Shown: positions 22,084 through 46,088 of the stretch, piece after piece
Layout: each line of letters starts with the position of its first letter
How positions within the stretch are numbered: position 1 is the stretch's first letter
NCBI GenBank assembly: GCA_023265455.1
Contig: JAHFTQ010000006.1
Span: forward strand, 30,746-94,745
Length of the DNA: 64,000 nt
Direction of reading: 5' to 3'
Source: Parachlamydiales bacterium
GTDB lineage: Bacteria > Chlamydiota > Chlamydiia > Chlamydiales > Rhabdochlamydiaceae
Made by a program: the position numbers and the translations under genes
Notes under the pieces: model-generated
The model's database searches: none
Seen by the model: the letters and a program-made list of their open reading frames with translations, nothing else
What the model was told of the DNA's origin: nothing

Positions 22084-22146
22084 CCCTGAATGTCTTGATA
22101 TTAATTTTTATACAGTATAAATTTTCCTGACATCAGGAGAAGCTAG

Positions 22147-24582
22147 ATGTCTACCAGTTCAACTGTTACTGCTTTTTCTCAAGGGGCTCTTCGTTTTTTC
22201 GATTATCATATATCGCCAGAAGGAAGGATAAATTTTCTACAAGATACTTCTTCGAGCTCGGGTGCTGTGAAAGCTCAAGTTTCTAATGTTCAAGGGACCG
22301 TCTCAGTTAAATTGCCTGAATCGGATCAGCTAGGAATAATGACCTTTGATTCGACTAAGCTCAAAATTCAGCAGTTATTACGAAATGTTCATTTAAAACC
22401 TATTTATCTTCAGGAGCTCAATGAGGTTCAGTTTGTTCCTATTTCACCCGAAGGCAAAATTTGGGAAAAAAGAGCTGAGATTTCTCATTGGGGTGTTAAA
22501 CACTGGGTAGCTCGTTTAAATGGGATGATTACGTATTTGAATAATGAGGGCGAGATAACAACATGGAATTGGGTAGATAATTCAAAAAAAACCGAACCGA
22601 ATTTTAGTGAAGCTAAGAAGGTGTGCATTACAGCATTTTCTGAAAAAACAGACGGTTCTCTCATCATGGGGGATAAGGAGGGGAGAGTATGGTCTGGTGG
22701 AAAGATCGTATTTGATACGGGGAAAAAGGAACCTATTGAAAAAATTGCCCCACTAGGACCCGCCCATTGTCTCGTAGTATTCAAGGGTAATTCAACAATC
22801 ATTGTAGATTATGGTTCTGAGAAAATTTTGAAGGACTTGGGAACATCGTCATCCTTTTTTGTTGTCAGAGAAGAAAAAATTGTTGTTTTAAGTGATTCTA
22901 AATTGGCAGTTTATCAATACAACCCCAGCGAAAATTCTTATCAGACTATAGAGCATCCCTACCAGCAATTAGAGGGAATTAAGGAAATTAAACAGGTCTC
23001 ATCGACTAAAGTGCTTGTATTTCATGAAGACGTTTATTTGTGGGATGTTGAAAAAAACCTTAAAGAATCCTGTCTAGATAGAGGAGTGCCACCCTACTAT
23101 TTGAAAAAGCTAGTGATTTGTTTGGATGATGAAACGTTATGCGTCAATGATCCTACTAAAATAGGGCTAGGCAATTGTCGGGTTTCGTTTTTTAATAAGG
23201 AAGGGGAATGTTTTCATGGGGATGCCGCAGGAACTTGGGGTATCCTTGATATGATTCTTCTTTCCGATAGTACGGTCATGTATGCAACAGATCAAAGGGG
23301 TGGGCAAGTTCATATTGTTACAAGACAGGGAAGAGTGATTTTCTCAAAATTCATTCAAGACTTAGCCGGTCACGATGGCCAGATACAAAAGCTCAAAGAA
23401 TTAGCCGATGGCTCAGTTGCTGTTATGTTTCGCGATAATATTTTAATTCTTAAGCCACGCATTGATCAGTCAGAAGATCAAAAATATTTGAATGAAAAAG
23501 CCGAGCTAGAACGAAAACACCAGATCGAAAAATACACTCTAGAATTGAAATACAACCCTGATAAGATAAGCCTTTACGCTGAGCTGGCTAATTCTTATAC
23601 AAATACTGAAAAGCAGTATGAAACCTATTTATCTGGCTTAAAGGCGGCTATTCGGATTTCTAATTTTTATCAGGCGCGGCGTTTTTATGAACGTGCCCGA
23701 CGGATTAAAAAGACTGACGAAGAACCTTGCCGGTTTTTTCTTGCCTATCTTCAAAATTCTCCTCACGAAAAAATTACACGATCGGTCCAGCTGGATCTAT
23801 TCAAGCTCACAGAAAATCCAAAGGATCGGCCTACACCAGATAAAAAGATTAAAGAACGATTGTTCGTTGGCGAAGGAGATTTTACCTATACAGAGGCGTT
23901 TATCAAAAAACATGAGAAAAGCCATCCGGATTTAAGCAAAGCCATCACTGCATCGGAGTTTTTGTCAGTGACGGATAAAACAGTTAATAGCAGAATCGAT
24001 CTTCTGAAAAAAAAGGGTGTTAAGATAGAAGAGAGTGTGGATGGCCGTAGTATACATGAAAAGTTTATAAATCGAAATTTTAAGCGGATTCACTGGAATT
24101 GCCCTTTTGGAGACAATGGAAGCTATGAATCAAAGGAACAATTTAAAAAAGTTATTCCCCAATTTTTTCGATCTTGTCGTCAATTGCAGAACAATAAAAA
24201 TCGTGTCCATGTCACCTTAGTCCAAGGAAATGAGTATTCAAAAGAAAGGCAACTGGAGAACCCTATCGTTCTAGGTGCAACCTCTAATGCTTATCGCTTG
24301 ATTCGGAAAAGACGGTTTGGGGCTGAGCGTTATCCGGGGTATCGACATGTCAAGACAGGTCGGACAACTCTCTACGATGCGGGCGGGCAAGAGATGGAGT
24401 TTGTGTTTGAGAAAACCGATTGTTCTGAATCTGATCCTCTTAAATTAAAAGATCCGAGTCAGAAAGAGTATAAAGTTATATCCGAACCGCCGGTTTCAGA
24501 AGAGAGCAAGATGGATCTTAGCCAGAGCCATTTTGAATGCAGTACAGATGACGATTCATCTGACTGCTATGATTCTGAATAG
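22147..24582 (+). CDS. Large effector-like protein: N-terminal beta-propeller-like region, helical middle, C-terminal BMT5/DUF2431-like methyltransferase domain, acidic tail
   Basis: The C-terminal region (about 23851-24415) carries LFVGEGDFTYTEAF, FKRIHWNCPFGD, VHVTLVQG, ERYPGYRHVKTG and MEFVFEK. These match the DUF2431 hallmark blocks (VGEGDFSF; FDRIIFNFPH; IHVT; YPGYxH; a terminal F-x-F block). Confidence 0.7.
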   Translation: MSTSSTVTAFSQGALRFFDYHISPEGRINFLQDTSSSSGAVKAQVSNVQGTVSVKLPESDQLGIMTFDSTKLKIQQLLRNVHLKPIYLQELNEVQFVPISPEGKIWEKRAEISHWGVKHWVARLNGMITYLNNEGEITTWNWVDNSKKTEPNFSEAKKVCITAFSEKTDGSLIMGDKEGRVWSGGKIVFDTGKKEPIEKIAPLGPAHCLVVFKGNSTIIVDYGSEKILKDLGTSSSFFVVREEKIVVLSDSKLAVYQYNPSENSYQTIEHPYQQLEGIKEIKQVSSTKVLVFHEDVYLWDVEKNLKESCLDRGVPPYYLKKLVICLDDETLCVNDPTKIGLGNCRVSFFNKEGECFHGDAAGTWGILDMILLSDSTVMYATDQRGGQVHIVTRQGRVIFSKFIQDLAGHDGQIQKLKELADGSVAVMFRDNILILKPRIDQSEDQKYLNEKAELERKHQIEKYTLELKYNPDKISLYAELANSYTNTEKQYETYLSGLKAAIRISNFYQARRFYERARRIKKTDEEPCRFFLAYLQNSPHEKITRSVQLDLFKLTENPKDRPTPDKKIKERLFVGEGDFTYTEAFIKKHEKSHPDLSKAITASEFLSVTDKTVNSRIDLLKKKGVKIEESVDGRSIHEKFINRNFKRIHWNCPFGDNGSYESKEQFKKVIPQFFRSCRQLQNNKNRVHVTLVQGNEYSKERQLENPIVLGATSNAYRLIRKRRFGAERYPGYRHVKTGRTTLYDAGGQEMEFVFEKTDCSESDPLKLKDPSQKEYKVISEPPVSEESKMDLSQSHFECSTDDDSSDCYDSE

Positions 24583-25237: not shown

Positions 25238-25567
25238 ATGAAGCGTCAAATCATGGACAAGCTCTGGACCTGGAAGGCTGACCCCAAGAGAAAGCCTTTA
25301 ATCCTTATGGGAGCCAGGCAGGTAGGTAAAACCTTTGTCTTAAAGAAATTTGGGGAACTCGAGTATGCAAACACCGTTTACCTGAATTTTGAAGACACTC
25401 CTCGGCTTTGCAAGCTGTTTGAGGACAGCTTAGATCCGGAAGTCATCTTAAAATCTCTGGCAATTGAGATGGATACCCACATCGTTGCTGGAAAAACACT
25501 CATTATTTTCGATGAGGTTCAAGAATGTCCCAATGCCCTAAACAGCCTCAAATATTTTTGTGAAGAC
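25238..25567 (+). pseudogene. 5' part of a DUF4143-type AAA ATPase gene interrupted by an IS607-family element
   Basis: KRKPLILMGARQVGKTF (Walker A) and LIIFDEVQE (Walker B). Homology to the intact paralog at 39946-41313 ends after ...LKYFCED. Confidence 0.85.
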
Positions 25568-25586
25568 ACTGTTCCTAAAAACGTGA

Positions 25587-27140
25587 TTAAACGTGTTCAT
25601 TTTGTTTCGCTCTCTGATTGACCGTCCGGTTTTTACGAGATTTCTCTCTCCCGGCTGTGACATTTTCAGTCTCGATAGGAACGGTGGATACATCCCTAGT
25701 TCGGTGTCTAGAGTCCTGCCCGGAACAGTCAGGGGGTTCTCCCCTTTCCAATCGGCGATGGAACCTGTCTTGAAGAATGATTTTCACTTGACTGTAAGGC
25801 GTATACAGTCCGATCTCGGGATCGTTCATTCTTCTGGCATAGTTCAGTGCGGCAATCCGATCTGCTGTGTCCTCATGTCTACAATGTAGACATTGAAAGC
25901 GGTCTCCCATGCGATTTCCTTGATCCACAAATTCACAAAGGGGACAGCTTTGAGAGCCATAGGCCGGATTGACCTGCTCATGGCGGAAACCTTCCGCCAG
26001 CGCTTTAAAGGCTATTCGATCTTGTATTTTTCCTCTGATCCACGAAGATAGCCGTCTGTTCACTTTTTTGGGTTTATCATAGATAAAGGCATGTCTTAGA
26101 TTTTCTGTGACCAAGATAGAGGGTTTTTTTGTGTGGATGAGTTGGTTGATGGAGGTATTGATTTGTTTTTCTAAAGTGGCTTTAACGCTTTGGGAGTTGG
26201 AGTGCTGTTTTTTCTTGCCAAGGTTGAATTTACGAAGGCGCTTAGCTTGCTGAGGGTTGCTAAGTCTTCGTTTTTTCTCAAGGGAGTGGAGTTTATGCCG
26301 TTTTTGCATTTTATGAGACAAGGTATCTGAGGCTTGGGTCAGTGTCGTCCCAAATTCTGTGCCATAGCGGATGCCTTGAGTGTCTGTCATCACTTCGGTA
26401 TAACCCAAGTCAACGGCCTCCAGGGATGTTTTAGGAGTGGTTTTCTTTTTTAATGCTTGGGGAATGTGAAGGTTAAATGTATTGTCAGCTGAGTAAATGA
26501 GTGTGATTGTGCCGGAGATGGCTGTTTTGCCGGAGAGGGGGATGCAAATCCTTTTGCCGGGTGTCAAAGACATGAGCTTTATGTATTGGCACTCTTTTTT
26601 TTCAAATACATCGTAACAGTTGGCATCAAATCGGACGCTTCTGGATATTTTGACGGTAGGAGGCTTCCCTTGGCAAGCTCTGATCAGTCTTCGTACATAA
26701 TTTGCAGTGCGTTTTTGAGCTGATTTTTCGATTGGGAAAGAGGGGTCGGGACTTTTGCCTTGCATCATGGCTGCAAATGATGAGGAGCTTTTGAGGAGCC
26801 AGTAAGCATAATGCTGCTCTATTTCTGTGAGGTCTTTGCGACGAGCAATCTTTGGACGGACTTTAACAAAAAGGGCTTGCCAGTATTTGTTCCATGTTTC
26901 GGCTGCGTCTTCAAGGGCAAGTTTCCAATGACGGGCTTGCAGCCCTTGGGGAGATTTATATGCTTGCTTAATCATCTTGTCGCGGATGGTTCGTGGTCTG
27001 TCTAAATGAACTTGGAAGCTCCAGGCTTGAAATTGACGCAGCCAGTACTGTTTTTCATTGGAATAGGCCTGGCAGATGTCTCTCAGAGAAATTTGTTTTT
27101 TAGCATTGAGTCGTAAAGTATCACGCTTAAGGGTTCTCAT
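25587..27140 (-). CDS. tnpB: TnpB (OrfB) RNA-guided endonuclease family protein
   Basis: RuvC-I AVDLGYT, RuvC-II ILVTENL, zinc ribbon CPLC...CLHC, RuvC-III DTADRIAALNYA. It overlaps the tnpA stop by 14 nt. Confidence 0.85.
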   Translation of the reverse strand: MRTLKRDTLRLNAKKQISLRDICQAYSNEKQYWLRQFQAWSFQVHLDRPRTIRDKMIKQAYKSPQGLQARHWKLALEDAAETWNKYWQALFVKVRPKIARRKDLTEIEQHYAYWLLKSSSSFAAMMQGKSPDPSFPIEKSAQKRTANYVRRLIRACQGKPPTVKISRSVRFDANCYDVFEKKECQYIKLMSLTPGKRICIPLSGKTAISGTITLIYSADNTFNLHIPQALKKKTTPKTSLEAVDLGYTEVMTDTQGIRYGTEFGTTLTQASDTLSHKMQKRHKLHSLEKKRRLSNPQQAKRLRKFNLGKKKQHSNSQSVKATLEKQINTSINQLIHTKKPSILVTENLRHAFIYDKPKKVNRRLSSWIRGKIQDRIAFKALAEGFRHEQVNPAYGSQSCPLCEFVDQGNRMGDRFQCLHCRHEDTADRIAALNYARRMNDPEIGLYTPYSQVKIILQDRFHRRLERGEPPDCSGQDSRHRTRDVSTVPIETENVTAGREKSRKNRTVNQRAKQNEHV

Positions 27141-27735
27141 TGTCTCTTGCCATCTCGATTATCTTTTTTTTGTATTTTCTCAGTCCATCTAAACGGCTGG
27201 AAAAACAATGTATAATTGATAGGAGGTCTTTCGTCATTTCTTGTTCGGGAGAAAGGGTATCGGCATTCATAACAAGAATAGAAACGCCGTGATCCTTGCA
27301 GAATTTTTCAAACCATTCGAATCCGAAGCGGACTAATCTATCTTTATGAGCTATTACAATTTTAGAGATCTCTCCTTGTTCTACCATTTCCATCAGATGC
27401 AAGAAATGTTTCCGTTTGTAATTTAATCCGGAGCCGATATCTTCTATTTTTTTATCAATGATCATTCCTGCTGCCAAGCAGAAGGATTCTACAGCATTCT
27501 TCTGCGAAATCAAATCCTTTTTTTGACTTGCACTTGATACTCGACAATATGTGACTAATAGACGTCTTTTAGACTTTTGCCCTGTGACCTGTAAATACTG
27601 ATCATGGGTATAGTAGCGTCGTTGTGTAATAGAGCGATGGGCCTTGAGTAGTCCTTTTCGATCCCATCTTTGAAGGGTTTTTGTTGTTTTCCCGATCAGC
27701 AATCCAAATTTACCAGGAGAATATATGTTCTTCAT
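27127..27735 (-). CDS. tnpA: IS607-family serine recombinase transposase (MerR-like HTH plus resolvase catalytic domain)
   Basis: The N-terminal HTH is GKTTKTLQRWDRKGLL, followed by YCRVSSASQKKDL, the catalytic serine motif. Confidence 0.85.
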   Translation of the reverse strand: MKNIYSPGKFGLLIGKTTKTLQRWDRKGLLKAHRSITQRRYYTHDQYLQVTGQKSKRRLLVTYCRVSSASQKKDLISQKNAVESFCLAAGMIIDKKIEDIGSGLNYKRKHFLHLMEMVEQGEISKIVIAHKDRLVRFGFEWFEKFCKDHGVSILVMNADTLSPEQEMTKDLLSIIHCFSSRLDGLRKYKKKIIEMARDNENP

Positions 27736-27782
27736 GGGTATGAATTTTCACATATGCGTATATTTTTATACTACTATTAATT

Positions 27783-28757
27783 GCTCCTGAACAACATATC
27801 ATAGCAGCTGGCTCCTTACTGGGAGTTAAGCTGGCTCACACAAAGGGATTTCCTGTTGGTAAAGTACAGTTTTTGACCCTGTACCCGTTAAGTTTTTCTG
27901 AATTTTTAGAGGCTTTGAAGAAGGAAAGATTAAGAACCTATTTCGAAGAATTGAAGGGGTTGGAGCCGCTGCCCTCCAATTTACATGATAGGCTTCTGGG
28001 ACATTTCAAAAAGTATCTTTTTGTTGGAGGTATGCCCGAGGCTGTCGCTGAATATATCGATTCTCAAAATCTGTCTAAGGTTCGTGAAATCCAAGAGGCG
28101 ATTCTCAATGCCTACAGTTTGGATTTTGCCAAGCACGCTCCTGAGGAAGAGATCATGAAAATCAACCAGGTTTGGGGATCCATTCCTAATCAACTCGCCA
28201 AGGAAAATAAAAAATTCATCTATTCTGCCCTGCGCCCAGGGGGGCGCGCTAAAGAATTCGAAATGGCTTTACAATGGCTGATGGAGGCGGGATTGATCTA
28301 CAAAGTCTCCCTTGTCAGTACTCCAAAAATCCCTTTATCGGCTTATGCAGATTTTAACATTTTTAAAATCTATCTCGTCGATGTGGGTCTCTTAGGCGCC
28401 ATGTCTCGGCTATCTGCAAAAACGATTCTTTATGAGAATGAACTCTTTCAGGAATTTCGAGGAGCGATCACTGAAAATTTCGTGGCTCAAGAGCTCGTCC
28501 ATAGCCACTTGCCGTTATTTTATTGGACAAGCGAGGGAAGAGCAGAACTCGATTTTATCATTGAGCAAGATGATCGTATCTATCCCCTGGAAGTCAAATC
28601 GGGAAATTCATCCAAGAAAAAAAGCCTCCGCGTTTATGGCGATACTTATCAGCCCAAACTTCTCGTTCGCATATCTCCGATGAATCTTAAAAAAGATGGA
28701 GATATTTTAAATTGCCCTCTCTACCTACTAGAAAAGCTTTCTATCTTGTTGTCATAG
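27783..28757 (+). pseudogene. 3' part of the interrupted DUF4143-type AAA ATPase gene
   Basis: Reading from 27783 gives APEQHIIAAGSLLGVKLAHTKGFPVGKVQFLTLYPLSFSEFLEAL..., in the frame of the track ORF 27873-28757. It is collinear with the paralog (HVIAAGSLFDFAL...MYMYPLSFIEYLAA). Confidence 0.85.
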
Positions 28758-31931: not shown

Positions 31932-34265
31932 ATGGCTATTCGTTCAACAACCGATGTATCTATCACTACCACGACAAGCACGGTTCAGGCCCCTTCTCAA
32001 AGTGTTGACCTTAAAATGGCCTCCATCAGAGCCCGTGTGCTGCAAACCATCCGCAATTACATGCCTCTGACAACACTTTTTACACACCAGCTCAAAATTG
32101 ACCTGGGGGTGTTCATCAAAGATCAGATGCTCATCCATCGCATTGCAGAGTTTATTGCTCCACTGCAGAGCACGGATATGGCTTCGATTGCTAAACATTT
32201 TGAAGGAAGTGAGCTCCTCACAGAACTCAAGGACATGTTTAAGGAAGATCTTTACTTAGTATCTATTTATGAAGCGTGCTCTGATGTGCTGAGTAAAAAA
32301 CCATGCTCAAATATGCTTAAATCGGCAATTGAGGGACGGATTTTTACTTTGAAAAACGCTTTGATTGCAAAGCACAATCCTGTGTTGGTGCGTAAGAGTC
32401 AGGTTCAATACCAAATTTCTTCACACAGTATCCCAGATATCGAAAAAGAAGGGGCAAGCTTCATTCGAGAATCACTTAGGTTGCACTTAACCGCACTTCA
32501 GGAGACAGACAACACCTCTTTTCGCAAGTGTCTGACTTCAGCAGCTGAGCAACTTATTCCTTTTGTTGAAAGAATTACTGGAGGCGTTCTCATGGAAAAC
32601 GGCTATCCGCCGGAGCCCCTAACCTTTCGAAATCCTACGGGGTACAACTATCAGGGGTTTGTTGCTGCGATCGTCATGGAAGTGTGTTTGAATGCTCTGG
32701 GGTGCAAAACGAGGGTGATGAGACGCTGTGATCTTGAGCCACGCGTCACCCTTGCAACGACACATAGCATCGTAGAAGTGACCAGTCCTGATGATTTAAG
32801 ATATATCATCGACCCTTGCTATCTTCAGTTTCATAAAGATATTGGAGTTGAAGAAAAGTTGCTTCCTACCGCTACTGTTCTTGTACTTGAGGAAAATGAG
32901 GTTGATGATTACATCGAGAAAAATATTATGATGCATTGGAAAGCCAACGCTCAACGGTTCTCCAAAAGTGATCCTTCTTTTATGGATAAAATAACCACGC
33001 AAGATCTGATGTCCTTTCGATTTCTCAATTACAACAACGTGCCTAAGGAGCTTATACCTTCGGGCGTGGAAGATTTTGTAAGAAGGGCATTTAAACGAGT
33101 CTGGGGACTCTCAACTTATAGCTCGACTCGTTTTGTTGAGGGATGCCAAGACATTTTCAATGGTTTGAAAGAGAACAGCATCGTTTACAAAACGACCAAA
33201 CCCATGGGGATTTTTCCCCTAACCCATCACCTCTCTTACCCCGACGTGGGGAGGCAGTTGGAGCCTTTCATGTCCAATCCAGCGTTAAAAGGGCAAAATG
33301 CCCTTGAGGCGTTAGCGCTCTTATCGCAGCTCCCTTATTTAAAACGGGCTAAATATAAGTGTTTGCTGGATTTAGATCCTCGTACTCATACTGACGTAGG
33401 CTTAGATGTCTATTTTCGTTCTCTTAAAAAGGTTGTCAACCCTCAGGAAAAAGATCTCAAAGTGGTTTATGGTTGCTCAGGTGCAGATTGTATGAGTGTG
33501 TTGCTTGCAACTGATGCTAAGGAGTTGCTGTTTGTTGATCTGACAAAGATCTCTTTTTCTGAATTCAAAGAGGCCTTAACCCTGCTTAAAAGCTCTTCTA
33601 AAAGTCAAATCAAAGAGCGGCTGGGGAAGGATTATTTTATAGGCCGAGAGACTTACATGGCAGGAATGAGCGGTTATGGGGATGGTCAACATCATATGGA
33701 TGATTTAGCACTCAAACTTCTGTTTGATTTGCAAGAAACAGGTGTCGATTTAGACCAGGTGGATCTCACATCTATCAATGGGGAAGTGCGGATCGATTTT
33801 TCGTGGCAATATTATGGAGCTCCAAGCGCTAGAAAAAGGAGCGTGACCTTTATCACCGCAGATATTACAAAACCAGATGCCTATCCAGACCACTTGCAAA
33901 GCCAGCTAAAAGCGGGAATCGATATTTTTTATCTGAAAGGGGCCTTTTTTGCACCCCAGTCCTACCCCCAATTTTTACCGACCCTTGCAAAGCATATGAA
34001 TGCGGGTGGCTGGCTTATGACGACGGACAAAACATCGTTCATGGAAACAGTCAATCCTGAGTTCTGCTTAAAGCAAAACAATCTTCATTTTTCACTTCAC
34101 AAAAGTGAAGAAATTCATCTTCTCGAAGAGCTGATAAGTCCCTCAAGTAGCCCCTTTGCCGTTGTTCAAACGCTGCGGATGTTTCCTCCTGAAAAAAGAC
34201 TTCAGCGTTCTCCTGGGACAGACATCACCTATTGGGCAATTCTAAACCTTCGACAAAAGATCTAG
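31932..34265 (+). CDS. Large hypothetical (effector-like) protein with a possible C-terminal class I SAM-methyltransferase fold
   Basis: 777 aa. Methyltransferase-like blocks are VVYGCSGADC (motif I-like), LLFVDL (acidic post-I), FITADITKP, IDIFYLKGA and NAGGWLMTTD. A mid-region resembles a transglutaminase/papain-like core (ALGCKTRVM...THSIVEV...IIDP), but the canonical Cys position is not conserved. Confidence 0.5.
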   Translation: MAIRSTTDVSITTTTSTVQAPSQSVDLKMASIRARVLQTIRNYMPLTTLFTHQLKIDLGVFIKDQMLIHRIAEFIAPLQSTDMASIAKHFEGSELLTELKDMFKEDLYLVSIYEACSDVLSKKPCSNMLKSAIEGRIFTLKNALIAKHNPVLVRKSQVQYQISSHSIPDIEKEGASFIRESLRLHLTALQETDNTSFRKCLTSAAEQLIPFVERITGGVLMENGYPPEPLTFRNPTGYNYQGFVAAIVMEVCLNALGCKTRVMRRCDLEPRVTLATTHSIVEVTSPDDLRYIIDPCYLQFHKDIGVEEKLLPTATVLVLEENEVDDYIEKNIMMHWKANAQRFSKSDPSFMDKITTQDLMSFRFLNYNNVPKELIPSGVEDFVRRAFKRVWGLSTYSSTRFVEGCQDIFNGLKENSIVYKTTKPMGIFPLTHHLSYPDVGRQLEPFMSNPALKGQNALEALALLSQLPYLKRAKYKCLLDLDPRTHTDVGLDVYFRSLKKVVNPQEKDLKVVYGCSGADCMSVLLATDAKELLFVDLTKISFSEFKEALTLLKSSSKSQIKERLGKDYFIGRETYMAGMSGYGDGQHHMDDLALKLLFDLQETGVDLDQVDLTSINGEVRIDFSWQYYGAPSARKRSVTFITADITKPDAYPDHLQSQLKAGIDIFYLKGAFFAPQSYPQFLPTLAKHMNAGGWLMTTDKTSFMETVNPEFCLKQNNLHFSLHKSEEIHLLEELISPSSSPFAVVQTLRMFPPEKRLQRSPGTDITYWAILNLRQKI

Positions 34266-37132: not shown

Positions 37133-37588
37133 TTACTTCCTTCGGATGTCGAAGACGGAGGGGCCTGTTTTCTGTAGAGTCTGGCCGCGCAAGGGGAGTT
37201 GACCGGTGGTGAGGGCTGTCTTCCAAGAGAAGGCCTTTTCGATGAAAAGTTCGAGAAAATCTACAAGGGTATCGCCGCGCAGTTCTGCGAAAGACAAGTA
37301 AGTGATGAAAGCCAGCTGGTTATTACGTTCGCTGTAGCTAAAGGTTCCTAAGCGGGGAAAAAAGTGATTTTCCTTTAGGGCTTCTTTTAAGACAGTTTCC
37401 CGAAAGTTCCCAGCGGGGATTTCTCCGAGGAAGGCTGCAATCGAGATGCGGTCTTTAAGATCATCTTCTTTGATTTGAATATGCAACTCTCCATTGATGC
37501 TGAGTTGACAGCTGCGGTGGTGATCGGGATGGAGGGGAACTTGAATCAAAGTTCCTAAATCATCGAGCAAGATGGCAAATCTATCCAT
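37133..37588 (-). CDS. Type III secretion chaperone, class I (Scc1/SycE-like)
   Basis: An internal ATG at 37588 gives MDRFAILLDDLGTLIQVPLHPD..., a 151-aa CesT/SycE-like protein. The start overlaps the copN stop (ATGGATAG). The position matches CT088 next to CT089 in C. trachomatis. Confidence 0.6.
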   Translation of the reverse strand: MDRFAILLDDLGTLIQVPLHPDHHRSCQLSINGELHIQIKEDDLKDRISIAAFLGEIPAGNFRETVLKEALKENHFFPRLGTFSYSERNNQLAFITYLSFAELRGDTLVDFLELFIEKAFSWKTALTTGQLPLRGQTLQKTGPSVFDIRRK

Positions 37589-38786
37589 TAAATTTCTTCT
37601 TTTTGTCTTTTTTTTCTTTCTCGAGGTCTTCTTCAATGTCTTCTAGTGTCTCCATAAAACACATGAGAAGTTCTTGACGGTGCCTCTCATCGCGAAATAG
37701 CCGGGGAGAGACTTGACGCATCGCGTCACGGAACTGAAGGTAAATGACCAACTGAGCTAGCTCATCTTCAGAAATGCCCAGTTGGCGAGCCATACTTTTG
37801 GCTTTGTCAACAGAGGGGTATCTCTCTTGGAGAAATAGCATAAATGTTTTAGCTAAGGCCTCAAAAGTGAGGCGCTCGGAAAAGGTCAGCCCTTGCCGTT
37901 CAAATGAGCTGATGATGAGCCTCATGCGAGAGTGGAAATACCTGAAAATACCCAAAATCGCCTGCATATTGCGGGTTTCACTCATCATGCGATGGAGTTC
38001 TTCTCGGGAGATGGAAGGGCCCTTGGCCTTAACATCGGCTCCTAGCGAATGGAGCATGAAGTCGATGACAGCTTTCAGCTTATCGAATGCGTATTTGCTT
38101 GAAAGCTCTTGAAATAGCGTATAGGCATCCCGGGGATTGGCAGTCACATTCCGATAAAGATCGCGCAGAGCTGTCGGAGAACCGAGACCTTGGGCGGAAA
38201 AATTCCGGGCTTGAGCGGCCATATTGCGGCCTGCGCGGATTTCTCTTTCATGTCTTTGATTGAGTTCAACTTTGGCTTTTTGAAGAAGCTCGCGCATGCG
38301 GGTGTCTGCTGTCTCAAGCAAAAAATCAAGAGCCTCATCAGCAAGGGATAGATCGCTGTAGGTTTCAACAAGTTTACGAAGAATGTCTTCAACAGAATCA
38401 TTTGGAGAGAGGCGAGCGCGGAGCGCTAGCAATGTCCGAGCTTGCAGCTCGGGGTTTCTCCGTTGATAAAACTCCGAGGTCTCTTGAAGCTTTTCAATCG
38501 CGGGGATTTCTTGTTCATCTTCAGCTTTTTCAGTTTTTTGGGCATCTTCCGGACGAACTCTTTCGCGAGTCCGTCTTTCAATGGATTGAAAGTTACGAGC
38601 TAAAGCCAGGGGATTCCAGGCATTGAGATCTCCCCATTCTTCAAACCCGACTTTTGCAGATTCTTGGGCGATTGCATACTGGCTTAAGCGTTGTTGGGAA
38701 GCGGCCTTTTGTGCCGTTGTCCTCTGATCGATATGCGGGATGTTGTGACTGATAATCTGGTCGTCTGACAAACGCTCGCCCTCCAT
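37581..38786 (-). CDS. copN: Type III secretion gatekeeper CopN (SctW; YopN/InvE/MxiC family)
   Basis: 401 aa, against about 400-420 aa for chlamydial CopN. It has an unstructured polar N-terminus, then helical repeats (ALDFLLETAD..., LTFEALAKTFMLFLQERYPS...). It is followed by a class I chaperone. Confidence 0.7.
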   Translation of the reverse strand: MEGERLSDDQIISHNIPHIDQRTTAQKAASQQRLSQYAIAQESAKVGFEEWGDLNAWNPLALARNFQSIERRTRERVRPEDAQKTEKAEDEQEIPAIEKLQETSEFYQRRNPELQARTLLALRARLSPNDSVEDILRKLVETYSDLSLADEALDFLLETADTRMRELLQKAKVELNQRHEREIRAGRNMAAQARNFSAQGLGSPTALRDLYRNVTANPRDAYTLFQELSSKYAFDKLKAVIDFMLHSLGADVKAKGPSISREELHRMMSETRNMQAILGIFRYFHSRMRLIISSFERQGLTFSERLTFEALAKTFMLFLQERYPSVDKAKSMARQLGISEDELAQLVIYLQFRDAMRQVSPRLFRDERHRQELLMCFMETLEDIEEDLEKEKKDKKKKFNG

Positions 38787-39945: not shown

Positions 39946-41313
39946 ATGTTCAAACGTCTGATCGATTGGCATCTTAAAGCATGGAAGGATCACAAATACC
40001 GCAAGCCCTTACTGCTGCGGGGAGCTCGCCAGGTGGGAAAAACACACGCAGTCAGACAACTCGGTAAACATTTTGACCATATGATCGAGATCAATTTTGA
40101 ACTGGCAAAAGATGCTAAGCCCATTTTTGACAAAGATCTTAGGCCAGAGAGGATTTTGCGAGAATTGGCTGCGTACGTGGGACGAACAAAGATAATCCCT
40201 GGGAAAACACTGCTATTTTTTGATGAAATTCAAGAGGCTCCTGAGGCGATTTTAGCGCTTCGTTATTTTTATGAAGAAATGCCAGAGCTTCACGTCATTG
40301 CAGCAGGCTCGCTTTTTGATTTTGCACTGGAACAGGTGGGGCTGCCTGTAGGCCGGGTTTCAAGTATGTATATGTATCCGCTATCATTCATAGAATATTT
40401 AGCCGCAAGTGGGAATATTGCAGCAGTCCAGACAATTTTAGGGAACCCGAATAAAGAATCGTTTTCTGAACCCATTCATCAATCGCTGATGAGTTTGGTG
40501 GGAGAGTATTTAGCTATTGGAGGTATGCCAGAGGCTGTCGCAAAGTGGGTGGAAGAGAGAAACCCCAAAGAGAGTTTTCAGGTTCATCATGACTTGATTG
40601 CCTCGTATCGGCAAGATTTTGAAAAATACGCTTCTAAACCTCAGATGGAACCTATTGATACCCTTTTTCGTCAAATACCCTCTATGGTTGGAGAAGAGTT
40701 TCAATATAAAAACATTCATGGGGAATTCCGAAAAAGAGAGCTTGCGCCTTGTTTGGATTTGCTTTGCAAAGCCAATGTGGTACACAGGATCCAGCATAGC
40801 GCTGGGAATGGTATTCCTCTGGGAGCTGAAGTCAATTTAGAGTGGTTCAAACTCATTTTAGTTGACGTTGCGCTTTGCCAGGCGACGTTAGGGTTCGATC
40901 TTTCAACATGGTTTTTAGAGCCGGGGCTTGATTTTGTTAATCGGGGATCTATCACAGAGGCGTTCGTGGGACAAGAACTGCTTTGCTATTCTCACCCTCA
41001 TCAAAAAGCCGAGCTCCATTTTTGGAAGCGTCAGGCTAAAAGTAGCACAGCAGAAGTTGATTATCTCTTTGAGTACAATCGAGAGATTGTTCCGATTGAG
41101 GTCAAAAGCGGGGATGGAAGAACGTTAAAGAGCATGCTAATGTTTTTAGAGAATCATCCTGATTCGCCTTATGGGGTGCGGTTTTCAGCGCAAAACTATT
41201 CTCAATGGGAAAAGGTTGATTCAAGGCCGCTCTATGCTGTTTGTTCTTTAGCGCATGAAGAGCAAAAGCAGGCACTAGACTATTTACTTGAGTTTCCCAA
41301 ATTTTTGGCTTGA
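39946..41313 (+). CDS. DUF4143-type AAA ATPase (intact paralog of the IS-disrupted gene)
   Basis: Walker A RGARQVGKTH, Walker B LLFFDEIQE and HVIAAGS. The C-terminal DUF4143-like region ends ...EVDYLFEYNREIVPIEVKSG. Confidence 0.85.
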   Translation: MFKRLIDWHLKAWKDHKYRKPLLLRGARQVGKTHAVRQLGKHFDHMIEINFELAKDAKPIFDKDLRPERILRELAAYVGRTKIIPGKTLLFFDEIQEAPEAILALRYFYEEMPELHVIAAGSLFDFALEQVGLPVGRVSSMYMYPLSFIEYLAASGNIAAVQTILGNPNKESFSEPIHQSLMSLVGEYLAIGGMPEAVAKWVEERNPKESFQVHHDLIASYRQDFEKYASKPQMEPIDTLFRQIPSMVGEEFQYKNIHGEFRKRELAPCLDLLCKANVVHRIQHSAGNGIPLGAEVNLEWFKLILVDVALCQATLGFDLSTWFLEPGLDFVNRGSITEAFVGQELLCYSHPHQKAELHFWKRQAKSSTAEVDYLFEYNREIVPIEVKSGDGRTLKSMLMFLENHPDSPYGVRFSAQNYSQWEKVDSRPLYAVCSLAHEEQKQALDYLLEFPKFLA

Positions 41314-42888: not shown

Positions 42889-45021
42889 TCAAGAAAGCTG
42901 GACCCTGCCTAGAGGTTGGATGCGCATTTCTGGGACGATCTCTTGGTAGGAGACGACGGGCAGATCGGGGAACTCACCTTCGATGAGTTTGCGGCTGAAG
43001 CGGCGGACATCGATGGCGGTGAGGAGCACAGGGGGTTGTCCTCCGGCGGGAGTCGGGGTAATGGTGCTACGCATCGCATGCATGATCATTTGAACAGCGT
43101 CGGGGTCTAGGGCAAGGTAGGAGCCGGCAGAGGTTTGTTTGATGGCTCCGCGGATCATGTCTTCAATGACAGGATCGAGGAGATAGACGGCTAGGACCGA
43201 TTGGCCAAGTGAGTATTTGTAACTGATGTACCGCTTGAGAGACGAGCGGATATATTCGGTGAGGAGGACGGTATCTTTTTCGGTTTGGGCCCACTCGCTG
43301 AGAGATTCTAAGATGGTACGGAGATCTTTGATCGAGACTTGTTCTTGAACAAGTCGGCGGAAGATCTCGGTGAGTTTTTGAAGGGGGACAAGACGGGTGA
43401 CTTCTTTGACGAGGTCAGGGTATGATTTTTCAACAAATTCTAAAATGGCGCGGACTTCTTGGATACCGATGAAATCGCTGGCGTGCATGCGGTAGAAATA
43501 AGAGAGGTGGAGGATGATGACTTCAAGGGGCTTCCAAAATTTGATCCCCGCTTTTTGGAGAACTTCTTGGAATCGATTATCAATCCAAACAGAAGGCAGG
43601 CCAAAAACGGTTTTAGACTGAGTAAAGGGGATGTTGTATTTGCGAAGGATATCGGGAGATTCGTTGACGAGAAGATAGCCTTCTCCAATTCTGCCGCGCA
43701 CGACGGGAACTTCATTGAGAAGAATGGCGTATTCATCGGCTTCTAAATTGGGTGAGTCGGTGCGAACGTGGACTCCGGGGAAGCGGACGCCCAGGTCTTG
43801 ATAGAGGGCATGGCGCATTTTGGGGACCATGTCTTCGATAAAGGTCGTTCCGCCGCGTTCTTTTTTCATGACTTGGGATAGGCTTTTACCGACTTCTAAG
43901 ATAATGGGGAGTGTGAGGGCGTATTCATCAGTAGGGCCGCGGACCATGGCATGTCCACCAGCTTCAGCACCACCGCCTCCTCCGACCATTCCAGAGGCGG
44001 CTTTAGCGGCGGCTTTCTTCGCGCTATTCATCCGGACAATCCCCATGGTTCCTAAGAGAAAGCTGAGAATGATGAAAATCGGTTTTGGCAAGCCAGGAAT
44101 AAACACAAAGAGAAACAAAGCAGCGGCTGCGATCAGGATCGCTTTGGGCTGACCGAGAAGCTGACTTGAGATCTCGGTTCCGAGGTGAGAGTCTTTCTTT
44201 TCACTGGAGACGCGGGTTGTCACGATACCGGCTGTCATCGAAATGAGAAGAGAGGGGAGCTGTGAAATGAGTCCAGATCCAATGGAAAGGAGGGTATAGG
44301 TTTTGGCTGACTGAAGGGCAGTCATCCCATGCATGGTCACTCCGATGATGAGTCCCGCAACGATGTTAATAACAGCGATGACGATACCGGCGATCACGTC
44401 TCCCTTGACGAATTTCATGGCTCCGTCCATCGCTCCGTAAAGCTGACTTTCTCGGGCAAGAGCCAGGCGCAGTTCCCGGGCTTGGTTGGCATCGATGATG
44501 CCGCTTCTCATATCGGCATCGATGCTCATCTGTTTACCGGGCATGGCATCCAAGGTAAAGCGGGCAGCGACCTCAGCGACCCGTTCAGCACCTTTGGTGA
44601 CCACGATGAACTGGACGATGGTGATGATTAAGAAGACGACGCCTCCCACCACAAAGTTGCCTCCCACGACGAAGTTTCCAAATGTTTGGATGATGTGGCC
44701 TGCGTAGGCGTAAAGGAGGATCTGTTTAGTAGCTGAGATTTCAATCCCTAAGCGAAAAAGGGTCGTAATAAGAAGTAGAGAGGGGAACATCGAGAGGTTG
44801 ACGGCTTTGGGGATGTAGAGAGCGACCATCATCAAAGCAATGGAGACCGTCAAGTTGATAGCGATCAAATTATCCAAAAATGCGGGAGTCACTGGCAAGA
44901 CGATCATCATGATGATGGTGATCACAAAAAATGCCAAGATCACGTCGCTGGACTGACTGATAATGCGTAAGATTCTAGCGCCCCCTAAAGAGCGTCCGAG
45001 ATTTGTAAAAAAATTATTCAT
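42889..45021 (-). CDS. sctV: Type III secretion export apparatus protein SctV (CdsV; LcrD/FlhA family)
   Basis: 710 aa. The N-terminal polytopic domain has FLIITIVQFIVVTKGAERVAEVAARFTLDAMPGKQMSIDAD, the FHIPEP signature. A cytoplasmic C-terminal domain follows. Confidence 0.95.
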   Translation of the reverse strand: MNNFFTNLGRSLGGARILRIISQSSDVILAFFVITIIMMIVLPVTPAFLDNLIAINLTVSIALMMVALYIPKAVNLSMFPSLLLITTLFRLGIEISATKQILLYAYAGHIIQTFGNFVVGGNFVVGGVVFLIITIVQFIVVTKGAERVAEVAARFTLDAMPGKQMSIDADMRSGIIDANQARELRLALARESQLYGAMDGAMKFVKGDVIAGIVIAVINIVAGLIIGVTMHGMTALQSAKTYTLLSIGSGLISQLPSLLISMTAGIVTTRVSSEKKDSHLGTEISSQLLGQPKAILIAAAALFLFVFIPGLPKPIFIILSFLLGTMGIVRMNSAKKAAAKAASGMVGGGGGAEAGGHAMVRGPTDEYALTLPIILEVGKSLSQVMKKERGGTTFIEDMVPKMRHALYQDLGVRFPGVHVRTDSPNLEADEYAILLNEVPVVRGRIGEGYLLVNESPDILRKYNIPFTQSKTVFGLPSVWIDNRFQEVLQKAGIKFWKPLEVIILHLSYFYRMHASDFIGIQEVRAILEFVEKSYPDLVKEVTRLVPLQKLTEIFRRLVQEQVSIKDLRTILESLSEWAQTEKDTVLLTEYIRSSLKRYISYKYSLGQSVLAVYLLDPVIEDMIRGAIKQTSAGSYLALDPDAVQMIMHAMRSTITPTPAGGQPPVLLTAIDVRRFSRKLIEGEFPDLPVVSYQEIVPEMRIQPLGRVQLS

Positions 45022-46088
45022 GTAAACAGCTTTGGTTCCTCTTCTCCGGCTTCAAGCCGTTTCAGCCACTGCAGGAGCTCTGCGATAGCCTCATAGGTCT
45101 CCTCAGGTACATAATCGCCGATTTTGCCTTTCTGGGAAAGAGTTTGTGCAAGTTGGACGTTTCTCATGATGGGAATTTGGGCTTCTTGCGCAAAGCGAAT
45201 GATCTGATCGGCGATGAGTCCTTGCCCCATGGTCACAATCCGGGGAGCCGGTTCAATTTCTTCTTTATATTCGATAGCGACCGCGATATGGACGGGGTTT
45301 GTAATAATGGCTCTGGCCCGGCGAGCTGAGATGGGACCTTCTTGATAGGCCATCTCTTGAGCGACTTGCTTGCGGCGGCTTTTCATGTGGGGGTCGCCTT
45401 CCGTGTCACGGTACTCTTGCTTGATCTCAAATTTTTCCATTTTCATTTCTTTCATGAAATTGTGCTTTTGGTAAGCGAGATCGAAAATCGCGATGATCAG
45501 GAAGAAAATGCCGACCCGGATAATGACCTTAACAAGGAAATCAGAGAAAACTGCTGCGCTCCCTAGAACGGGCATGGCAGCTGTGGCGATGATTTCAGGA
45601 ACGCTATTGTAGATCACGGAGTAGATGAGGAGCATGGCTCCAAAAATTTTTAAGATGGATTTAAGCAGCTCAATCAAGGTTTTTAGTTTGAACATGTTCT
45701 TGAGATTGGTCACCGGATTGAGCCTTTTAGGGTCCATTTTAAGGACTTCGCTAGAAAAGACAGGCCCTACGATCAAGAACGAGACTAAGACTCCAGTTAG
45801 GCTTGTGATCACGACAATCGGAAGGCTGCACTCGAGAATGACCATCAAGCACTGGCCTAGGTAGCCTCCCATCCGGTTGGCTATATCTGTGGTTTGCCCG
45901 ATGCTGCGAAATGTCGAAATTAAGTAGCCTCCCATCTGCTGAAAGAGATGCTTAGTGGTAAATAGCACAACCGCGATCGAGGTGACAAAGGTGAAAGCGG
46001 AAGGAAAGTCTTGCGACTTTGCCACCTGTCCTTTTTTACGAGCGTCACGGAGTTTTTTCGGCGTCGCCTTTTCTGTTTTTTCTGCCAT
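45018..46088 (-). CDS. sctU: Type III secretion export apparatus switch protein SctU (CdsU; YscU/FlhB family)
   Basis: MAEKTEKATPKKLRDARKKGQVAKSQD, four transmembrane segments and MKMEKFEIKQEYRDTEGDPHMKSRR. The autocleavage loop reads ITNPVHIAVAI, whereas NPTH is canonical. The start overlaps the sctV stop region. Confidence 0.95.
   Translation of the reverse strand: MAEKTEKATPKKLRDARKKGQVAKSQDFPSAFTFVTSIAVVLFTTKHLFQQMGGYLISTFRSIGQTTDIANRMGGYLGQCLMVILECSLPIVVITSLTGVLVSFLIVGPVFSSEVLKMDPKRLNPVTNLKNMFKLKTLIELLKSILKIFGAMLLIYSVIYNSVPEIIATAAMPVLGSAAVFSDFLVKVIIRVGIFFLIIAIFDLAYQKHNFMKEMKMEKFEIKQEYRDTEGDPHMKSRRKQVAQEMAYQEGPISARRARAIITNPVHIAVAIEYKEEIEPAPRIVTMGQGLIADQIIRFAQEAQIPIMRNVQLAQTLSQKGKIGDYVPEETYEAIAELLQWLKRLEAGEEEPKLFT

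Follow-up and report, generated by a model that had tools for sequence, protein, structure and literature searches.

The founding member of the Pfam family PF10354 (BMT5-like, formerly DUF2431) is Bmt5 (YIL096C) of Saccharomyces cerevisiae. This nucleolar enzyme binds S-adenosylmethionine (SAM) and writes the 3-methyluridine (m3U) m3U2634 in 25S ribosomal RNA (rRNA), and mutations of residues in its SAM motif abolish the activity (PMC3950682). We analyzed a bacterial gene of this family that lies at 22147..24582 (+ strand, stop included) in a 64,000-nucleotide stretch of DNA (the window) from a Parachlamydiales bacterium of the Rhabdochlamydiaceae (GCA_023265455.1, contig JAHFTQ010000006.1, positions 30,746 to 94,745); its product of 811 residues is referred to as P0001. 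At the level of the family, P0001 resembles Bmt5 in its GxGDF(S/T) loop, N-x-P motif IV, YPGY block and class I fold. Unlike yeast Bmt5, P0001 is bacterial, is 811 residues long and has a WD40 propeller, a helical linker, a 55-residue acidic extension and the clade inserts RQxENP and RKRxFG.

Methyltransferases that intracellular bacteria are known to export modify proteins of the host, histones above all. NUE of Chlamydia trachomatis and RomA/LegAS4 of Legionella are secreted SET-domain histone methyltransferases, and NleE/OspZ are secreted methyltransferases with the NleE fold. What P0001 would share with them is the concept of a eukaryote-like SAM methyltransferase exported to act on host macromolecules; their folds are different and their substrates are proteins. 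We know of no effector with a Bmt5-type RNA methyltransferase, and literature searches on DUF2431, PF10354 and Bmt5 effectors returned no paper on bacterial members.

The gene is intact. Judged by its sequence and modelled structure, the encoded protein joins a WD40 propeller and a helical linker to a Bmt5-family N-methyltransferase that depends on SAM and is probably active. Our leading reading, to which we give a probability of about 0.45, is that P0001 is an accessory effector, a host-RNA-directed methyltransferase delivered by type III secretion. It was ranked first because the enzyme is basic, protist relatives carry RNA-binding fusions, the family in bacteria has an intracellular-only range and eukaryote-type fusions, the gene is accessory in its spread, shifting in its context and low in guanine plus cytosine (GC), and the bacterium has a type III system. 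What we infer is that P0001 is secreted, where in the host it is located, that its substrate is RNA, which position it modifies and what its tail does. P0001 would be exported through the type III secretion system of its Rhabdochlamydiaceae host bacterium, and the propeller and linker would attach it to a partner in the host. A nucleic acid of the host would be methylated by the basic methyltransferase domain, possibly, if yeast Bmt5 is a guide, at N3 of a uridine in large-subunit rRNA, and the conserved acidic C-terminal extension would pack on the enzyme domain and modulate or complete the active enzyme.

The open reading frame (ORF) is complete and consists of a single uninterrupted frame. 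A ribosome-binding site read from the sequence (AGGAG, 22135..22139, + strand) stands 7 nucleotides before the ATG, and the start at M1 matches the start of 35 full-length homologues in the alignment. The gene is present in a single copy in a genome of 1.94 Mb that is 96.9% complete.

The BMT5-like class I SAM methyltransferase domain, delimited with Pfam, AlphaFold2 (AF2) and VIA-align, comprises residues 565-756 (23839..24414, + strand) and has a net charge of +14. PF10354 matched residues 572-735 over nearly the full model (positions 1-167 of 168) with an E value of 7.3e-26 and 91.9 bits (cut-off, 24.7); a six-frame search of the genome gave 94.4 bits. An NCBIfam search of P0001 gave nothing meaningful. 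A preliminary description of this stretch had read a C-terminal DUF2431/BMT5 domain at 23851-24415. The profile search bears this out, those coordinates correspond to residues 569-756 and to the fold in the AF2 model, and every sequence block that had been named is present in its place.

Motif I, LFVGEGDF (residues 572-579, 23860..23883, + strand), is the SAM-binding glycine loop, in which conservation at G575, E576 and F579 is 90% or higher among 36 full-length homologues. Motif IV, RIHWNCPF (residues 647-654, 24085..24108, + strand), is the N-x-P catalytic loop typical of N-methyltransferases; R647, I648, W650, N651 and P653 are at least 90% conserved, and P653 is invariant in bacterial and plant domains. 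Acidic or Asp positions follow strands 2 and 3 (TASE 601-604 and VDG 631-633, with D632 at least 90% conserved), and the other blocks are VHVT 687-690, RYPGYRH 728-734 and MEFVFEK 750-756. One might imagine a scaffold that has lost catalysis and preserves the fold alone, since P0001 carries S603 at a position where T is the family residue. P0001 nevertheless retains the glycines of motif I together with E604, D632, N651, P653 and the YPGY block, all near-invariant across the family, and their conservation despite divergence to 21-47% identity points to selection for catalysis, which makes a dead scaffold very improbable.

Residues 556-811 were modelled alone with AF2 from a 50-sequence alignment, and the result was a class I (Rossmann-like) methyltransferase with a predicted local distance difference test score (pLDDT) of 92.6 and a predicted template-modelling score (pTM) of 0.90. 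The top structures in VIA-align were TrmN (Z 12.3, root-mean-square deviation 2.8 over 146 residues) and Trm14 (Z 12.1), at the head of a flat list of about 50 unrelated methyltransferases with Z 10-12. Foldseek matched the enzyme part to CamA, TrmN, aTrm11 and TrmB with template-modelling (TM) scores of 0.38-0.47. Such a flat list shows the fold class and not orthology. TrmN (3tma) and Trm14 (3tlj), which are tRNA m2G6 methyltransferases, are the nearest solved folds; both are class I with a (D/N)PP(Y/F)-type motif IV, at 14-19% identity. At the sequence level, the single P0001 protein found only a chance hit in the PDB (ERGIC-53, E 0.13), and a profile of the enzyme plus tail found no match there at E<=0.1. 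The run RKRR at 720-723 was considered as a nuclear localisation signal and rejected, as the model places it inside one of the strands of the fold.

The strongly basic enzyme domain suggests a nucleic-acid substrate, and RNA would be consistent with the top structural neighbours, which are RNA methyltransferases, and with the sole characterised member of the family, which acts on rRNA. Two proteins from a marine-protist transcriptome (P0280 and P0282, about 395 residues) join RRM and CCCH zinc-finger domains to a BMT5-like domain of the same Pfam family and with the same core motifs as P0001; these RNA-binding fusions speak for RNA as the substrate of some family members, if not of all. All of this stands against an alternative that we consider unlikely, in which P0001 is a secreted effector with a substrate other than rRNA, be it a host protein (methylated on glutamine, lysine or the N-terminal amine), DNA or another class of RNA chosen by the propeller. 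That alternative draws on the flat class I list, which at Z 10-12 includes DNA adenine (CamA, M.TaqI), small-molecule and protein or peptide N-methyltransferases, and on the propeller itself, as WD40 propellers usually bind proteins or peptides. It also draws on the distance between the bacterial clade, with inserts and a C-terminal extension peculiar to it, and the sampled eukaryotes: against the chlamydial profile a plant protein, the seven-tandem-domain protein of Cuscuta, reached about 1e-17 per domain vs <1e-40 for the rest of the top 150. Plant BMT5-like proteins (At4g26485-like/'HIPP41' and the Cuscuta protein) have the same core motifs as the P0001 domain, at 20-29% identity.

Residues 757-811 (24415..24579, + strand) form an extension that is specific to the bacterial clade, has a net charge of -11 and contains two predicted strands (775-779 and 794-798). 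In the AF2 model of residues 556-811 it is predicted to be ordered, with pLDDT 85-97 up to about residue 805. It ends in the motif HFECSTDDDSSDCYDSE (residues 795-811, 24529..24579, + strand), for which the family consensus is YFECSTDEDSSDYYxSD and that of the wider clade TDxDSSxY; C798, S799, D801, D803, S804 and S805 are at least 90% conserved among the 36 full-length homologues. The acidic tail of the preliminary description is therefore present at 795-811, but as a conserved, predicted-ordered hallmark of the bacterial clade and not as a loose appendage.

Nearly all bacterial members extend 45-60 residues past the final methyltransferase strand, up to the conserved acidic motif. The motif also occurs in the short forms and in the Coxiellaceae (…EHDTDNDSSSYE) and Legionellales (…MDTCSDSSDGE) relatives, and the most divergent chlamydial forms (L008 and L020) have a variant, FDSxDEFxHSSxxSxDxG. 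The sampled plant proteins stop at the last methyltransferase strand (…CSTFKF, equivalent to MEFVFEK) and lack TDxDSSxY. The taxa that bear the motif are known for different secretion systems; the tail accompanies the enzyme in all of them, whatever the N-terminal fusion, and so belongs to the enzyme rather than being an export signal. Given the opposite charges of domain and tail, we favor a role in intramolecular regulation, with the tail as a nucleic-acid mimic, or a structural role. The TDxDSSxY extension can be used as a recognition signature of the bacterial PF10354 branch. We did not adopt a reading of YFEC plus the acidic run as a free FFAT-like or CK2-site linear motif, because the aromatic residues belong to a strand that is predicted with confidence and packs against the domain.

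The front of the protein was modelled with AF2 on the whole sequence from an alignment of the 36 full-length homologues (alignment A1, 21-47% identity to the query), with a mean pLDDT of 87.2 and a pTM of 0.60. Residues 1-14 (22147..22188, + strand) are a Ser/Thr-rich, predicted-disordered N-terminus (pLDDT <50 at residues 1-12) that may hold a type III secretion signal. The first 25 residues contain 8 Ser/Thr and 2 acidic residues, and no hydrophobic signal peptide or Sec signal was found in them. A small beta subdomain with a conserved helix (KIQQLLRNVHLKP) follows at residues 15-82 (22189..22392, + strand; AF2 secondary structure and family consensus).

Residues 83-440 (22393..23466, + strand) form a WD40-repeat beta-propeller, according to AF2, Foldseek and the family profile. 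The AF2 model has about 34 beta-strands at residues 83-439 with pLDDT of about 90, and the Foldseek matches of this region were all WD40 propellers (G-beta, Fbw7, TBL1XR1, WDR41 and processome UTPs; E ~1e-11, target TM 0.5-0.64). The Pfam WD40 models gave no match to the single P0001 sequence at E<=1; the family profile matched WD40 proteins among the PDB sequences (Tako8, 2.8e-10; 2ymu, 1e-7; WDR5, 2e-6). The best of these, Tako8, is a designed eight-bladed propeller, and at about 45 residues per blade eight is the likely number of blades here as well. The propeller is joined to the enzyme by a helical linker at residues 441-556 (23467..23814, + strand; AF2 and family consensus), with six helices at 442-555 and the conserved sequence YxARRFYEKARK. 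The earlier proposal of a beta-propeller-like N-terminus and a helical middle region agrees with these models.

The distribution of the family was examined with several searches. A word-index search with the full protein returned two relatives only, of which the closest full-length one (L002) is 42% identical; this reflects the sensitivity limit of that search, because an exhaustive HMMER search with residues 555-760 gave 372 clusters at E<=1e-3. The best 60 clusters are mostly proteins of 650-900 residues with the domain near the C-terminus. In the phylum sample, 46 of 401 genomes had a PF10354 match above the cut-off, all in one order code and in many family codes, and open frames of 750-890 residues were common among them. 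Matches were present in 4 of 13 other genomes of the genus and in 10 of 89 of the family, which makes the gene accessory and not core. By tblastn, 30 loci or more share a homologous WD40-helical front, and the profile search found it in 69 of 166 bacterial rows.

The named genomes were found through a single peptide pattern, and their list is a lower bound biased to close relatives. The chlamydial holders of the enzyme clade in this list are Rhabdochlamydiaceae, Parachlamydiales, Parachlamydiaceae HS-T3 and Anoxychlamydiales, and the non-chlamydial holders are one metagenome-assembled genome (MAG) each of Coxiellaceae, Legionellales, Alphaproteobacteria and Babeliaceae. In the lineages sampled, the bacterial PF10354 branch is limited to intracellular bacteria. 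Its other members, including the short chlamydial forms of about 300 residues and the Babeliaceae protein HVX00703.1, have 30-62% domain identity to P0001 and the same tail; the nearest by domain (about 60-62%) is in the Rhabdochlamydiaceae MAG MFD05580.bin.1.47. The WD40-helical front is confined to a chlamydial sub-clade of the branch. Elsewhere in the bacterial enzyme clade the domain is fused to ankyrin repeats (Coxiellaceae MAG, L054 2080-3777), to a J-domain (Alphaproteobacteria MAG, L056 19-2277, followed by transposase helix-turn-helix (HTH) genes) and to TPR repeats. Two metagenomic proteins may be deubiquitinase fusions, both on borderline scores: P0014 (1076 residues) has WD40-BMT5 followed by a C-terminal match of the herpesvirus tegument protease type (25.9 bits vs a cut-off of 25), and P0138 (1163 residues) has an OTU match upstream of BMT5 that is below the cut-off (21.2 vs 23.3 bits).

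Three observations on database records touch on this distribution. Several MAGs titled 'Verrucomicrobia bacterium SZAS…' (L034, L037, L046, L048 and L053) carry chlamydial-type genes and were placed in the genus or the family of the window, and the titles look like outdated or wrong taxonomy. One of these genomes (SZAS AMP-14, G066), of the same genus code as the window genome, has three copies of the domain (L034, L046 and L048). A protein of 215 residues from the pitcher plant assembly of Sarracenia purpurea var. burkii (P0160, U1Q18_050735, on a 55.8-kb contig) is 44% identical to the P0001 domain and ends in the chlamydial tail YFVCSTDDDSSDYYSSD; its contig is probably chlamydial, from a symbiont or a contaminant, within the plant assembly.

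Phylogenies were built with FastTree (177 rows) and with a quick IQ-TREE run under LG+C20 PMSF (83 rows). The eukaryotic outgroups recovered by the profile search were almost only plants, together with three usable protist sequences among five weak matches to L008. In both trees a long, fully supported branch splits the plants from all bacterial rows, and when the three marine-protist sequences were added, a branch with support 96 (FastTree) kept all 75 bacterial rows on a single side. Basal positions are taken by the non-chlamydial bacteria and by many unlabelled forms from metagenomes, and the chlamydial forms are in one clade of 54 rows (approximate likelihood-ratio test, SH-aLRT, 95). All 33 rows with the WD40 front are in one clade of 38 rows (SH-aLRT 96), in which the remaining five are short forms that may be fragments or secondary losses. 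The fusion of WD40 propeller, helices and methyltransferase therefore arose once and is old, given that all fused rows share one clade and that the architecture is common to many chlamydial families. Two loci of family code f7, L008 (G370) and L020 (G356), are sister to all other bacterial members; they score about 1e-25 to 1e-28 against Pfam and 1e-14 to 1e-18 against the chlamydial profile, and they may represent either the most deeply branching lineage among the bacteria or a gene that was acquired separately.

The preliminary description had taken the domain as eukaryote-type and horizontally acquired, which would suggest a direct import. That suggestion is not supported: the closest relatives are several hundred bacterial proteins that form a clade of their own apart from the sampled plants and protists, relative to which the bacterial branch has a single origin. 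P0001 belongs to a fused chlamydial group within this uncharacterised bacterial branch of a known enzyme family. The relatives, although bacterial, are not common bacterial proteins, as PF10354 matched 0 of 14 well-known control genomes and the branch is found in intracellular lineages only. From the distribution, and with an unrooted tree in which the eukaryotes are plants and three marine protists, a eukaryotic origin of the bacterial branch is plausible, and any transfer from eukaryotes must have been ancient, as the full fusion is common to many chlamydial families. For annotation, this means that PF10354 in such genomes should not be taken as eukaryotic contamination or recent transfer, since a large bacterial branch exists.

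The composition of the gene is atypical for the genome. Its GC content is 39.3%, and 34.2% at third codon positions (GC3), vs means of 45.7±3.4% and 45.3±6.2% in the long ORFs of the genome, of which it is in the 3rd-4th percentile. Type III secretion genes are present in the window, 13-22 kb downstream of the P0001 gene: a CesT-family chaperone (37133-37636), CopN (37581-38786), FHIPEP/SctV (42889-45021) and SctU (45018-46088). They confirm the earlier statement that this bacterium bears such a system. Its genome shares a genus code with the Rhabdochlamydiaceae MAG MFD05580.bin.1.47 and with the Rhabdochlamydiaceae symbiont of Dictyostelium giganteum (NZ_OZ197277). That symbiont is Reclusachlamydia socialis, and the preprint on it mentions neither methyltransferases nor WD40 (bioRxiv 10.1101/2024.11.28.625222).

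The transposase genes beside one relative, that of the alphaproteobacterial MAG, would fit another reading, in which P0001 is a toxin that methylates nucleic acids and belongs to a toxin/antidote or inter-bacterial system. The AlkB-type oxygenase family PF13532 had no match in the whole 96.9%-complete genome, although the same search found it in three control genomes, and the absence of an AlkB-family gene disfavors a toxin/antidote methylase. No small co-directional partner gene was found, and the WD40-helical front of 560 residues does not resemble the delivery domains of toxins. We regard this explanation as very unlikely.

Several points weigh against a type III-delivered, host-RNA-directed effector. 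Only one PF10354 member, yeast Bmt5, has a known substrate and the sampled plants are only 20-29% identical to P0001, so that RNA, and m3U especially, is an extrapolation. Motifs of the N-x-P type are found also in DNA and protein-glutamine methyltransferases, and WD40 propellers are not exclusive to eukaryotes. No chaperone gene was found adjacent to the P0001 gene; an adjacent chaperone is common for effectors and not required. Finally, an old vertical persistence across many chlamydial families would fit a function in the bacterial cell too.

This last point leads to another doubtful explanation, that P0001 is an endogenous enzyme for the methylation of chlamydial rRNA or tRNA, or a ribosome-assembly factor, with the propeller as a bacterial scaffold. 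The old architecture with its conserved catalytic motifs, the missing chaperone, a secretion signal that is only predicted, and the existence of bacterial WD40 proteins (cyanobacterial 2ymu is among the profile matches) are all compatible with it. However, most sampled genomes have no match, even within the genus (9 of 13 are without), and this indicates that the gene is not essential housekeeping. The varying genomic context, the atypical composition, the lack of matches in the control genomes and the effector-style ankyrin, TPR and J-domain fusions of clade members in other phyla also argue for the effector reading over an endogenous one.

A bolder extension of the effector reading, which we put forward as speculative and improbable, is that this family would give the first example of bacterial effectors known to place a methyl group on a base of host rRNA (as m3U, for instance). 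The propeller would sit on host ribosomal or pre-ribosomal particles, and the TDxDSSxY tail would be a nucleic-acid mimic or a switch controlled by a host kinase that keeps the enzyme off inside the bacterium. Such a built-in switch, if true, would account for the tolerance of the bacterium to the enzyme although no AlkB-type antidote is there. Delivery of an RNA base methyltransferase by type III secretion, if true, would be a novel means of interference with translation or ribosome biogenesis in the host. The WD40-BMT5 family offers a concrete and widely conserved candidate of about 800 residues in many environmental chlamydial families, and the cultivable Dictyostelium symbiont of the same genus code has it too. 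What is new here is the conserved WD40-helical-methyltransferase architecture with its single origin, the structural models, the TDxDSSxY signature of the clade and the absence of an AlkB partner in the genome.

The neighbourhood of the gene contains HtrA, EamA transporter and ABC transporter genes upstream, and downstream a small signal-peptide-like ORF followed by an AAA_14/DUF4143 ATPase gene that is interrupted by an IS607-type element. Beside the homologues compared, no such neighbour is conserved. The flanking ORFs of 129 and 152 residues matched no Pfam family; the downstream product of 152 residues begins with a hydrophobic signal-like segment and is not kept beside the L002 homologue. 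At L002 (6602-8011, JGI contig Ga0669116_0000808), the beginning of the WD40-BMT5 gene is overlapped by the gene of a protein with a BTB domain, a eukaryote-like domain typical of amoeba-associated chlamydiae. An ABC transporter with 49% identity lies beside the same-genus homologue L034, and it was not counted as synteny, as its orientation is different.

Farther downstream, an ORF of 777 residues (31932-34265, + strand) between malQ and a PBP4-type peptidase gene had no Pfam match at E<=1e-3. The interrupted AAA_14/DUF4143 ATPase gene is split into ORFs at 25238-25621 and 27873-28757 (window 25238-28757). The IS607-type unit between them encodes a serine recombinase with a MerR HTH (27127-27735, - strand) and a TnpB/Cas12f-like protein (25587-27140, - strand), and an intact paralogue of the ATPase gene is present at 39946-41313.

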